Shown piece by piece: positions 15,705 to 64,000 of a stretch of 64,000 nucleotides of DNA. Both the position numbers and the translations under genes were made by a program. The DNA is taken from the NCBI GenBank assembly GCA_030265395.1, contig JARFYF010000104.1:86286833-86350832 (forward strand), given 5' to 3'. This stretch comes from Rhina ancylostomus (Eukaryota). Within the stretch, counting starts at the first letter, position 1; each line of letters begins with the position of its first letter. The notes below the pieces were generated by a model. That model had not been told where the DNA came from, ran no database searches, and saw only the letters and a program-made list of their open reading frames with translations.

Positions 15705-16290
15705 AAAAGAATGCAGATGCTGGAAATCTGAAACAAACACAGAGAATGCTGGAAATACAGCAGGTCAGGTAGCTTTTGTGGAATGAGAAACAGATAAAAT
15801 TTCAGGTTGAAGATCTTTATCTTCTGACTTGGCACGTTGAAGTTTTTTGGACTCTATCAAATTCAGCCATTTAAACTTAATTCACCTTTTCTGTTTGTGT
15901 CAGAATTGGCCATTTTGACTTTAAGTCATTCATCTGTGATTTTTTGGGACAGTTCTCCAATTTTACATACTTTTTTTGTCTTTTTCTTACTTCATAACTT
16001 CCTTAATTTCATAGCATTTGTTTATATTTTTCTCTCTAACTGCTATCATTAACCCACCAACTGGATGACCGCTACAATTTGTCCCAATGGTAACCCTGGT
16101 CTTAATTTATCAGAGATATTTCCTCTGTCCTGTGCATCCTCCCCCAGCCCTCTCAGCAACTTTTTGCTAACTTGTTTTATCTTTTCCCACTTCTGAAAAA
16201 TGTCACCTGCATGATGTGTTCATTTTGATTCTTCTTCTGTAGATTCTGCCTAATCTGCTCTGTATTTCCAGCCTTTTCTGATTTTATTTG
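15705..16290. mobile_element. Penelope-like element remnant with inverted terminal (pseudo-LTR) segments
   Basis: The left arm (tgcagatgctggaaatctgaaacaaacacagagaatgctggaaatacagcaggtcagg, 15711-15770) is the inverted counterpart of the right arm (ctgcctaatctgctctgtatttccagccttttctgattttattt, 16246-16289). Same repeat family as the GIY-YIG-linked copies at 41770 and 56120. Confidence 0.7.
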
Positions 16291-41287: not shown

Positions 41288-41392
41288 GACCTAGAAACAT
41301 CAACTATCCCTTTGCCTCCTGACCAGATGAGTTCCTCCAGCAGCTCGTTTTTTGCTCCAGTTTCCTGCATCTGCAGTCTTTTGTGTCTCCTG
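41288..41392 (+). mobile_element. Penelope-like 3' terminal fragment, 5'-truncated inside the hammerhead
   Basis: gacctagaaacatcaactat..gagttcctccagcagctcgtttttgctccag..catctgcagtcttttgtgtctc. Confidence 0.7.
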
Positions 41393-41769: not shown

Positions 41770-42400
41770 CTTGAAAAACACAATGATGCTGTGGGAACTC
41801 AGCAGGCCAGGCATCATCTGTGGAGAAAAGCAGGCAGTCAACATTTCGGGTCAGGACCCTTCTTCAGGACTGAAAATAGGAAAAAGGGAAGCCCGATATA
41901 TAGGAGGAAAAGCAGAGCAGAGATAGGTGGACTAAAGGGAGGAGGCAGGGTGGGCACAAGGGGGTGATAGGTAGNNNNNNNNNNNNNNNNNNNNNNNNNN
42001 NNNNNNNNNNNNNNNNNNNNNNNNNNNNNNNNNNNNNNNNNNNNNNNNNNNNNNNNNNNNNNNNNNNNNNNNNNTATAGGAGGAAAAGCAGAGCAGAGAT
42101 AGGTGGACTAAAGGGAGGAGGCAGGGTGGGCACAAGGGGGTGATAGGTAGATGCAGGTAAGAGAGAGTGATAGGTGCGGGGGAGGAAGGGAGAGCAGATC
42201 CATCGGGGATGGGTGGAAGGTAAGGAGAGAGAAAAAAAAGGCTAGGAAAGGGAAGAAGCAAAGAAGCATCATGGTGGGGGTGGGAGAGGAGAGGAGTTTG
42301 TGGGGATGACCTAAAGTGGGAGAATTCAATATTCATGCTTTAGGCTGCGAGGTTCCAAGGTGGAAAATGAGGTGCTGTTCCTCCAGTTTGCGCTTGGAAA
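41770..42400 (-). mobile_element. Penelope-like retroelement 3' end (GIY-YIG C-terminus plus 3' UTR/pLTR)
   Basis: Minus strand encodes SKRKLEEQHLIFHLGTSQP/MNIEFSHFR (Penelope endonuclease C-terminal motif), then a pyrimidine-rich UTR, a hammerhead core and the terminal gatgcctggcctgctgagttcccacagc repeat. Confidence 0.88.
41835..41872 (-). ncRNA. Minimal type-I hammerhead ribozyme motif (Penelope-associated)
   Basis: Minus strand: CAGUC-CUGAAGA-A-GGGU(CCUG)ACCC-GAAA-UGUU^GACUG. Perfect 5-bp stem I, 4-bp stem II, loopless stem III (AUGU, probably CpG-decayed ACGU). Predicted cleavage between 41840 and 41839. Confidence 0.65.
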
Positions 42401-55891: not shown

Positions 55892-56117
55892 AAGCAGATC
55901 AGTGATAGGCGGACAAAAGAGGGGAGGTGGGGTCAGCACAAGGTGGTGATATGTCGATGCAGATTCACTGCTCTGCTTTTCCCTCCTATACATTGGGATA
56001 CCCCCTTTTCCTATCTTCAGCCCAGAAGAAGGGTCCTGACCCGAAACGCTGACTGCCTGCTTTTCTCCACGGATGCTGCCTGTCCTGCTGAGTTCCTCCA
56101 GCATCATTGTGTTTTAA
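55891..56117 (+). mobile_element. Penelope-like 3' end with inverted 5' segment and mutated hammerhead
   Basis: 55891-55961 is in minus orientation and 55963-56117 in plus orientation; both match the 41770-42160 copy. The core reads CAGAAGA-A-GGGUCCUGACCC-GAAACGCU (56023-56050), with two core substitutions. Confidence 0.85.
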
Positions 56118-56119
56118 AT

Positions 56120-56379
56120 TTACTGGAGGAACTCGACGGGTTGAGCAGCATCTGTGGGAGGAAAGGAATTGTCGAAACCCTGCATCAGGACCGAGAGCGG
56201 AGAGGCAAGAGGAGGAGGGGACTGGTGGGATAGGGGTCTGAGGTGATTGTGGACTGAGGAGGGGTGTAAGATGACAGGCAGGTTGTGCCTGATATTCTGC
56301 CTGGGTAGTCTACAACCCAGTTGCATGAACATTGAGTTTTCCAATCTTAGATAACCCTCCCCTCCGGTGGGTTGTTTCC
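56120..56379. mobile_element. Penelope-like fragment with internal inversion
   Basis: A minus-orientation 3' UTR (56120-56288) is joined to a plus-orientation GIY-YIG C-terminus LIFCLGSLQPSCMNIEFSNLR* (56289-56355). Confidence 0.8.
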
Positions 56380-57409: not shown

Positions 57410-57885
57410 CATCGGCCTCTCCCCTCCGCCCTCCCCTATCTAGTTCTGGGTCCATCTGCCATTCACCTCTCCCCTAACGGTTCCCATTATCACCTCCTTT
57501 ACTTGTCAGAATCCAGCACCAGTACCCTTTGTGTTCCTGCTTATCTCTGTCCAGCAGCTGTCTCCCACCTTCTCACTCCCTACTCCTGCCTTGCTCCATC
57601 TGCTTCTCAATATGTTTTTTCTCCCTCTCTCTGCCTGCCTCCATCTATCATTCACCTGCCACTGTCTCCCATCTCCATCCCTTACCTGGCACAACCAGCC
57701 TGTCAAGTTATACCCTTCCTCTGTCCACCAATCACCTTGGACTCCTGTCTCACCACTCCCCTCCTCCTCTTTACACTGGCCATCTCACCTCTCCCCTCTC
57801 AGTCCCGATGCAGGGTTTCAACAATTCCTTTCCTCCCACAGATGCTGCTTGATCTGCTGATTTCCTCCAGCAGATTGTTTGATGC
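57410..57885 (+). mobile_element. Penelope-like 3' UTR/pLTR
   Basis: Pyrimidine-rich UTR ending agtcccgatgcagggtttcaacaattcctttcctcccacagatgctgcttgatctgctgatttcctccagcag; inverted relative to the same-family copy at 56120-56288. Confidence 0.82.
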
Positions 57886-59413
57886 TTTGAGTTCTAGATA
57901 ACTTTGATAATGAGTACATTGCGAATATACTTCATTAGCTGCAAGTGGCTGGGCACATCCTTAAGAGTGCAATTTTTTTTAAGAAAAGGTAGTTTCTTGC
58001 TGCATTCAGATTTGACCTTTCTTTGCCCGTAGCCTCATAATGACAGCTTCGTCTCTCTCCTCACAGCTGCTAATGTCTCCAGCAGGTGCTCTTCCTCCTG
58101 ACCCCTGGTTACTTCCGTGCTTTCAGGGCCAGGGTTGTACTGCTGTTTAGCTGCTGAATGCTTGTGTTAGTTTCGTCCTTGGATATTTCTTCAGATACTT
58201 CCTTCAAGTATTTTTTTTAAACTCCTTAAACGTGGACCCTGGAGCCTTTGACTGCATGTAAAATTTAAATGCAAATATCTGTTTAATTACCATATATTGC
58301 AGACTCTGTTACTAGCAGACCTTAGAATACTGATTTAGGATTTTTCCACATATGCAGAAATGGTGCTTGGAGCAACTCAAATAAACTTCTATGCCCAAAA
58401 TATTCAAAACAGATAACCCAACAAGTAAGCATTAAAAGTGCCAACGAAACTTGCATGCTTATGAGACACCTCGCCAGTGTTTTATTGCTGTACAAATACC
58501 CCCAGCCATTGTTTGGGCAACCCATTAATTGCAGATTAAGTCCTTGTTCTTTCATTTTCTCCTCTTTTCCTTCTTGCTCCTTTTGCTGTTGCACCTGTGC
58601 AAGCTACAAATAACTCTCCAGTCTCTCGTCAGCCATCCTCCTAGCTTTCTCAATGTTCAGGTGGCATAATCCAATTTTCTTTTTTTTCGCTGAGTTCCTT
58701 TGTTTGTCATTCCCTTTGCAGTTTTCATTGGCTTTGCAAGACCGTAAATTGCCCCTGTCCTTGCCTCCCTCCTCTGACAGCTGTTTGACATCCTGCACCC
58801 TCTGGAGCCATCAGTATTCAAACCATGGGTGTCAAGGCACAGCTGTCACTGCTTCTGCTCAGCTCAGCTACTTTCTGCTTTTTTTTTCGTGCCCAACATG
58901 TTCTTCTGTGACAGGGAAAAAATCTTTTCTACCTACAAAGAAAGTCACATTACCAGTATATAAGTGAGAGGTGGCCCAGATCTTTCTCTTTGATTTCCCT
59001 ATTGTTACCGAGGTAATGTTGAGACAGATTTTCAGATTTGACAGATTGTTGTCACTCACAGATTACTATTTGTTTTAGGATGGTTCACTAGCAGCTCTTA
59101 TTTATTTAGATGTTTGATTATACATTATATGCAAGTAACTATCAGCATAACCGGCTTTTCTGTCGAGGCATTGGAAATAACATTAGCATTACATATGGTG
59201 TCTATGGGTTCTAGGATTGAAATGGCTTCGTTTTATGTTTTGGATTGTGCTTCCTTTGTTTTGGGTTTGAGATGGGTAATTTTACATATAGGTTTAGTAC
59301 AATGGACCTTTTTTTTGAGATGTTGATTGCCTTTCATTAGCTGCATCTACTTGCTCTAACTCTGCAGGCTTTGGTGTAACCACACTTGGAGGACCATGTA
59401 CAGATTACACTCC

Positions 59414-63290: not shown

Positions 63291-63725
63291 ATTTCATTCA
63301 TGCAAAAGGACTTGCATTTACATAGTGCCTATCACAGATACAAGAAAAAGGCTTTTCTTTCTACTGGTTGAGAATTGGAAATGATCCCATGTAGTTTCAA
63401 CACAGCTTCTCATAGATGCAACTCAGGAGCACAAGTGACTAAGCAGAAGCTGGTAATTCTATTTGGAAGAGCTTTCAGTGCCTGGTTTGGAAAAAAGTGG
63501 TGGGGGTTGGGGCAGAAAATTATGGGTGCCATTTGCAAAGATGTATCTTTGAATACAATATTCTTCACTAAAAATGGGAAAATTATTCTTTCTATCTTAT
63601 AGTGTGCCTTTTGGCCTCTCCTGTCCATGCTGACCAGCAGGTAATTATTTCCACCAATCCCATTTGCTCGCACTTGGTCCATAGCCTCTGTGCCTTGGTG
63701 ACTGAAGTGCCTGTACTGATACTTG

Positions 63726-63860
63726 GAGATACAAGAGAGACCACAGAGGCTGGAAATCTGGAGCAATGCACACAAAATGCTGGAGGAACTCAGCAGATCA
63801 GGCAGCATCTATGAAGGGAAATGAACAGTTGACGTTTCGGGCCGGGACCCTTCATCAGGA
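63726..63860 (-). mobile_element. 135-bp Penelope-derived insertion with 15-bp target-site duplication
   Basis: Flanked by ctgtactgatacttg (63711-63725) and ctgtactaatacttg (63861-63875). The body is the Penelope terminal repeat, starting at the hammerhead. Confidence 0.85.
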
Positions 63861-63864
63861 CTGT
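63825..63864 (-). ncRNA. Minimal type-I hammerhead ribozyme motif with complete catalytic core
   Basis: Minus strand: ACAGUC-CUGAUGA-A-GGGU(CCCG)GCCC-GAAA-CGUC^AACUGU. All core nucleotides present, GUC triplet, palindromic ACGU stem III, stem I ACAGU/ACUGU with one C.A mismatch next to the cleavage site (63831/63830). Confidence 0.75.
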
Positions 63865-64000
63865 ACTAATACTTGCATGTTGTGAGAGTTGCTTCCTACA
63901 CCACCATCTCAGGCAGTGTATTCCAAACCACAACCACCCTCACAGTGAAAAATTCTTCCTTATAGCCCCTCTAAACCTCTTATTCCTTAGCTAAAACCTA

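Follow-up and report, generated by a model that had tools for sequence, protein, structure and literature searches.

Minimal hammerhead ribozyme motifs (min-HHR) residing in the pLTRs of metazoan Penelope-like elements (PLEs) have been described by the thousands, mostly as single, dispersed motifs, and were attributed to truncated PLEs (Cervera and de la Pena 2014, PMC4209133), while TATA and Inr-like motifs are also known from a pLTR, in an account that puts solo pLTRs down to recombination or to deletion and invokes self-priming, with an antisense template, for the inverted arms (Arkhipova et al. 2013, PMC3846280). For PAc, a Poseidon PLE of Anolis, the pertinent sections report two internal reverse transcriptase (RT) starts bounding the tail in vitro, with the uncut RNA as the main substrate (Frangieh et al. 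2024, PMC11167929). A CX2-5CxxC linker before the endonuclease is given for Neptune and Nematis, but not for Penelope/Poseidon, in the relevant part of another survey (Craig et al. 2021, PMC8557442), and non-LTR retrozymes have, by the definition given in their description, two or more ribozyme units in tandem (Li et al. 2026, bioRxiv 10.64898/2026.07.22.740005). Three questions are still posed in the literature: how are PLEs copied, which strand serves as the template, and what does the hammerhead do (PMC3846280, PMC8557442, PMC11167929)?

The locus considered here belongs to a stretch of 64,000 nt, which was analyzed as a whole and is referred to as the window. The 135-bp insertion with a 15-bp target-site duplication (TSD; one mismatch) proposed by the initial annotation is real: the two flanking 15-mers (Table 1) differ at one base, the match between them ends there, with none beyond 15 bp, and, because, among the fetched loci, six homologues in which the host repeat is not interrupted each have a single copy of the 15-mer stretch, the duplication was created at insertion. 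The same goes for the microhomology suggested between the outer part of stem I and the target, as the final three bases of the upstream TSD (CAG) are identical to the family sequence. TSD-like matches with a score of at least 8 adjoin 19 of the 63 sampled copies, versus 3 of the 150 mismatched flank pairs put through the same search. The split host repeat is presumably a CR1-like ORF2 end (a label given on the strength of the translation rather than from a database).

Table 1. Coordinates of the hammerhead motif, the insert, its surroundings and the other PLE fragments of the window.
Feature	Position	Strand	Remarks
Minimal type-I hammerhead	63826..63863	-	sequence reading
Stem I	63863-63859 / 63830-63826	-	
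Core CUGAUGA	63858-63852	-	C3 = 63858
Extra A	63851	-	
Stem II (GGGU-CCCG-GCCC)	63850-63839	-	
GAAA	63838-63835	-	
Stem III (ACGU)	63835-63832	-	loopless, palindromic
C17	63831	-	
Predicted cut site	63830..63831	-	base 63830 is A (G in the family)
PLE terminal stub, comprising the ribozyme, a conserved segment downstream of it and the tail	63726..63860	-	family positions -2..+132 relative to C3
Optional 35-nt tail	63726..63760	-	putatively bounded by two internal RT start sites, by analogy to the excerpted account in PMC11167929
TSD, tail (3') side of the element	63711..63725	+	single in empty-site homologues
TSD, 5' side of the element	63861..63875	+	1 mismatch
Microhomology CAG (3 nt) common to target and element	63861..63863	-	63862 is A(-4) of the family, putative transcription start
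Host repeat split by the insertion	63630..64000	-	compared with uninterrupted homologues
Longer family-2 copy, tail-less	41778..42395	-	endonuclease end (42395-42270), 3' UTR, ribozyme at 41867
Family-2 copy (56001-56112, +), directly adjoined by a decayed copy on the opposite strand (56196-56118)	56001..56196	.	
Older copy running on upstream	57644..57886	+	ribozyme partly deleted
Decayed short copy	15708..15821	-	start near the ribozyme
Short copy	41293..41388	+	most of the core missing

With the insert as the query, the 2.2-Gb genome yielded 5,384 first-look candidates; the two first genome searches were ranked by similarity to the insert and were left out of the end statistics. The large dispersed population supposed by the initial annotation does exist, and in two families at that, exact tail-motif matches numbering 1,486 for family 1 and 1,462 for family 2 genome-wide. 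Longer copies continue upstream into ~365 nt of pyrimidine-rich sequence and then into the end of a GIY-YIG endonuclease-like frame, with RT-like motifs and a C-X4-C-xx-C linker (seen in loci L174, L178 and L179) further upstream. The putative RT and endonuclease motifs were identified by eye in the broken frames of the long copies, and a Pfam search with the RT and endonuclease fragments returned nothing significant. Judging from its sequence, which matches the last 135 nt of the family, the insert constitutes the end (ribozyme and tail) of an abundant PLE with a Neptune-type linker. Its designation as a Penelope terminus with a minimal type-I hammerhead stands; the longer copies run on into the RT/GIY-YIG-like frame. 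A full-length pLTR-ORF-pLTR copy was found neither in the 10 long loci examined nor among 257 tail copies, and none of the latter (0/257) continued downstream into an ORF common to them, one pair sharing another repeat. An ATG at +50, with a TAG immediately in front of it, begins a frame that in the family reference (63808-63726 of the window, minus strand) is open through the tail end, and is a candidate start of the ORF of the element. The open frames at L178:5988-7194 (+), close to a PLE fragment, resemble a core-2/I-branching glycosyltransferase gene.

Direct copies have their 3' ends near +132 and their inverted partners near +97, an adjacent inversion being present in 25 of the 92 family-1 copies. 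Truncation at the 5' end, an inverted 5' partner, a one-sided tail of 30-40 bp, TSDs, solo pLTRs and TATA/Inr-like motifs within the pLTR are all features shared with the Neptune/Nematis EN+ PLEs, as far as the excerpted accounts describe them (PMC8557442, PMC3846280). Likeness to PAc, in the sections cited, would lie in internal RT starts bounding the tail, priming of both strands, an uncut template and a ribozyme placed slightly upstream of the tail (PMC11167929), whereas the family studied here has the CX4CxxC linker absent from Penelope/Poseidon, and its putative transcription start and genomic 5' ends are mapped here and not in those sections of the PAc account. As the optional tail, the two internal RT starts and minimal hammerheads in truncated PLEs have all been described, the element type is already known.

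Read on the minus strand, the motif of the insert runs CAGUC, CUGAUGA, the extra A, GGGU-CCCG-GCCC, GAAA, CG and UC^, with the G10.1-C11.1 pair kept (G 63850 with C 63839) and GUC at 63833-63831 as the NUH triplet. The initial annotation had called it an essentially complete hammerhead, and the minimal type-I layout is indeed present; what had been overlooked is that pair 2.1-1.1, right beside the cut, is a C·A mismatch in the insert, the family majority being C-G (stem I is thus 5 bp long by the family majority, with the C·A included in the insert). The mismatch is a product of CpG decay. A mismatch at pair 2.1-1.1 would impair cleavage, and the ribozyme of the insert is likely impaired by this one. 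The core, the extra base between A9 and stem II, the G10.1-C11.1 pair, the loopless palindromic stem III and, by the family majority, the short stem I are as in the min-HHR, unlike stem II, which has 4 bp in the insert and 7-8 in the motifs characterized in the cited part of that study (PMC4209133). Since an Rfam scan of the window matched no hammerhead family, and the motif folded alone was not significant (z -1.8, the minimum-energy fold being an alternative hairpin), it is the family, and not the single copy, that provides the evidence for the motif; a loose core pattern was likewise not enriched in the window over shuffles (4 versus 1.7 expected). The insert itself is an ordinary PLE fragment, probably a dead one, and represents no new ribozyme class.

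Once inserted, copies decay neutrally, with no selection on the core seen: the core shows 38 non-CpG differences per 450 positions in family 1, versus 146 per 1,485 in the downstream flank, and is thus no better conserved, an outcome that the initial annotation had listed as refuting its proposal. Because of three CpGs (at G12, stem III and the cut), just 1 of the 45 sampled family-1 copies has a fully intact ribozyme, exact intact motifs numbering 246 genome-wide. All 38 of the 38 family-2 copies have U at position 17 (a GUU triplet), and the majority sequence of this family (copies at 41778-41905 and 56001-56112 of the window and in L182-L211 and L222-L261) has an A·C mismatch in stem I; as family 2 was amplified with both, a likely weak ribozyme was no bar to its spread.

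Could the 135-bp units form a non-autonomous family that propagates by itself in the manner of a SINE or, as the initial annotation had deemed possible, of a retrozyme? Their discrete length, thousands of copies and TSDs would suit such an interpretation, as would internal RT initiation, which would make any transcript containing the tail copyable, and with the non-LTR retrozymes, in the excerpted description, the insert has in common a non-coding, PLE-derived nature, a type-I hammerhead, dispersed monomers and occurrence in a cartilaginous fish (Li et al. 2026). Short and long copies (25 and 24, respectively) nevertheless interleave in the tree, with 14 label changes versus 16.7 when shuffled (58 of the 500 shuffles being as low), a short/long split of 13/11 and 12/13 in the two subfamilies, no site diagnostic for the short copies at p<0.05 and equal divergence (0.124 versus 0.111, p=0.29); 43 of the 92 copies were left out of this tree as intermediate or censored, and with 101 columns it has weak support and low power for small side lineages. 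Neither were there any true tandem ribozyme pairs among the three close same-strand pairs checked (0/3), all of which straddle assembly N-gaps. The stub, moreover, has no A/T box upstream, keeps its ribozyme uncut and does not begin at the cut, so the supposed retrozyme-like family is not supported and is, in our opinion, very improbable; in contrast to the retrozymes as characterized in the cited portion of their description, the insert is single and the stubs show no sign of a lineage of their own (Li et al. 2026). The apparent tandem ribozyme/tail pairs of L262, L263 and L264 are sequence duplicated across gaps of roughly 100 N, likely assembly artefacts able to inflate retrozyme counts in this assembly.

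For the analysis of 5' ends, copies of family 1 were sampled in the order of their positions with an exact 24-nt tail motif as the only criterion, the first 90 loci giving 92 copies, of which 61 had a scored 5' end, 25 were censored and 6 had internal deletions. Ends falling at -12..+10 of C3 accounted for 27 of the 61, a rate 7.6 times that of +11..+80 and 10.4 times that of -112..-13 for a window picked after seeing this family, and none of the 20,000 constant-hazard simulations reached 27 ends in any 23-nt window. Restricting the analysis to the 67 non-inverted copies left 17 ends in the interval (ratios 8.6 and 12.3), and 21 of the 25 inverted partner pieces likewise end there. In family 2, for which the interval had been fixed in advance, 16 of the 35 scored ends (73 copies, 38 censored) fell within it, with ratios of 5.6 and 7.8. 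The 5' ends, for which a genome-wide check of discreteness had been proposed, are accordingly discrete rather than random, with a peak in both families, and they lie ahead of the ribozyme instead of at the cut, the preferred stop being 3-6 nt in front of the hammerhead core.

Random 5' truncation might be brought up here, the peak then being an artefact of failed alignments or of gaps in the assembly within the low-complexity tract upstream, seeing that censoring, by N-gaps or because the reference ends, affects 25/92 and 38/73 copies and that heavy 5' truncation is known in PLEs, according to the part of the survey cited (PMC8557442). This is, nonetheless, hardly credible: the peak stands above both the upstream and the downstream rates, TSDs adjoin several peak ends (that of the insert included), the inverted pieces show the same peak, and the G bias described below is position-specific. 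Cleavage by the ribozyme as the source of the 5' ends was rejected for the non-inverted copies, in which there was no excess of ends at the cut (2 ends, p=0.31).

Genome-wide, at least 471 junctions lie at -5, 695 at -4, 621 at -3 and 247 at -1, all of these being lower bounds, as the patterns demand two non-family bases, while 3,481 copies run through to -9; mutated long copies made up 2 (at -4) and 4 (at -3) of the 30 junction loci inspected. Tallying the preceding bases by hand, G was found before the -4 junction in 68 of the first 100 cases (background 0.40, p=1.4e-8) and before the -3 junction in 49/100 (background 0.40, p=0.05), with no enrichment before -5 (14/100) or -1 (24/100), for each of which the background is ~0.25. 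An initial tally for -3 (G in 13/16) had largely mirrored microhomology with inverted partners and was abandoned when the share fell to 49/100. Non-inverted -4 junctions have the preceding G in 12 of 19 cases, and in L274 a G stands between the TSD and the element that is missing from the target copy. TG precedes the -4 junction in 41 of the 68 G cases, that is, in 41/100 overall versus ~13% expected; a second untemplated base, CpG decay or a preference for certain targets may lie behind this.

An A/T box is located 31 nt before A(-4), counted from the box start, in the references of both families (TATATA in family 2, TTTTATT in family 1), and the context of A(-4) resembles an initiator. When a 5' cap is copied by an RT, an extra G results, a phenomenon for which our literature search of open PMC and bioRxiv returned no source. 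From the peak of ends, the -4-specific G, the spacing of the A/T box and these cap and initiator properties taken together, we infer a transcription start at A(-4). No pile-up of RNA starts, and neither sharp starts nor sharp ends, were seen when three RNA runs (one study, fragmented library) of a related species were compared with L094, a null result that is weak because of the library fragmentation and because 96-97% of the reads run on into unlike sequence and so come from embedded copies. The terminal segment at L094:1460-1980 is heavily covered on both strands in these runs, which is consistent with passive transcription of embedded stubs.

The same stretch may also be read as a 3' splice site, with the 5' ends marking a barrier at which the RT was halted by splicing factors or a splicing intermediate on the pyrimidine tract. 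Both families have such a tract and a CAG directly before -2, some ends lie at -9..-12, and the family-1 A/T box fits the branch-point consensus as well. Furthermore, helix I marks the end of an intron in the D. virilis Penelope, whose start site lies further upstream, in the excerpts of the accounts cited (PMC4209133, PMC2377424). We nevertheless regard a splice barrier as unlikely, for under it no extra G would be expected at -4 in particular, the hazard within the tract is low, no peak copy has a shared upstream exon, and the family-2 box is a TATATA at TATA spacing. Another stop, one linked to the ribozyme itself (the cDNA snapping back, or the RT leaving the template, once both stem I strands have been copied), would account for the peak being at the 5' edge of stem I and for the 5 junctions at +23..+32 in inverted insertions (p=0.003), where the stem I strands are complementary. 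Stem I is just 5 bp long, however, and a hairpin should halt the RT at its 3' base (+32), at which the non-inverted copies show no excess; family 2 has the same peak despite a weaker stem I, and the extra G and the A/T box are left unexplained, making this stop distinctly unlikely. A frequent arrangement in inverted insertions is an inverted piece that ends near -5 and is joined to a direct piece with its start near +28 (L064, L142, L143, L144, L040, L042 and L050), and at such joins, the stem I strands being complementary, two cDNAs could anneal without any cleavage.

We consider it rather probable that the insert, a Neptune-like Penelope terminal piece, arose by run-off copying of the capped 5' end of the element's uncut RNA. 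A promoter in the terminal repeat would start transcription at A(-4), the protein of the element would nick the target DNA, and reverse transcription would begin inside the RNA at the tail, i.e., at +132, or at +97 for the other strand, by analogy with the in vitro behavior of the anole PLE. Starting at the site near the 5' end of the RNA, the RT would copy only about 136 nt, up to the cap, the ribozyme being uncut in the template, and the stub would then be joined to the target (via the 3-nt microhomology in the case of the insert), giving rise to the 15-bp duplication; the insert would later have lost pair 2.1-1.1 by CpG decay. Several observations count against this run-off reading: the peak is broad (-12..+10) and not a single base, the cap alone does not explain the TG excess, the insert was joined by the CAG microhomology without an extra G, and the start stretch is readable as the 3' splice site discussed above; the RNA reads with no pile-up of starts, the lack of a full-length source among the copies examined and the Pfam result for the RT and endonuclease fragments also weigh on this side. 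Neither an accumulation of 5' ends ahead of the motif nor an extra G features in the excerpted min-HHR account (PMC4209133), and whereas the sections of the pLTR account drawn upon invoke recombination, deletion and antisense self-priming, the data presented here favor direct insertion of short cDNAs made from capped sense RNA (PMC3846280). Our search of open PMC and bioRxiv (supplements aside) came upon no description of a run-off or cap reading.

More tentatively, and with slightly more doubt than confidence, it might be proposed that PLEs routinely insert such "strong-stop" cDNA, an internal RT start at a tail site near the 5' end yielding a 136-nt copy of the capped leader. The thousands of stubs would then map the start to one base, prove that the template is capped, sense and uncut, and place the hammerhead right at the 5' terminus of the mRNA; cleavage would there take off the cap and serve as an off-switch, not as a step of unit-length processing. 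If the stubs do stem from run-off on a capped leader, the start site is recorded in the genome, the in vivo template is uncut sense RNA, and the role of the ribozyme shifts towards decapping or regulation; the family-level pattern of ends is, in any case, a useful and testable clue to the PLE mechanism.

As for the rest of the window, it contains 10 PLE fragments, and the initial annotation was right about at least six core-bearing or core-decayed copies, six having been found (at 63858, about 41867, 56022, 57812, 56190 and 15820), only 2 of which pass a relaxed hammerhead descriptor. Not all of them are mini-insertions, as at least three (41905, 56001 and 57644) reach the PLE 3' UTR upstream, one of them as far as the endonuclease end, and the U-A pair noted in stem II of the 41.8-kb copy is there, but at 41856/41851 instead of 41835. 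The Rfam scan of the window also gave three sub-threshold miRNA-family matches, all on the 56-kb fold-back of two opposite-strand PLE ends (56047-56177), which is the source of these spurious matches.
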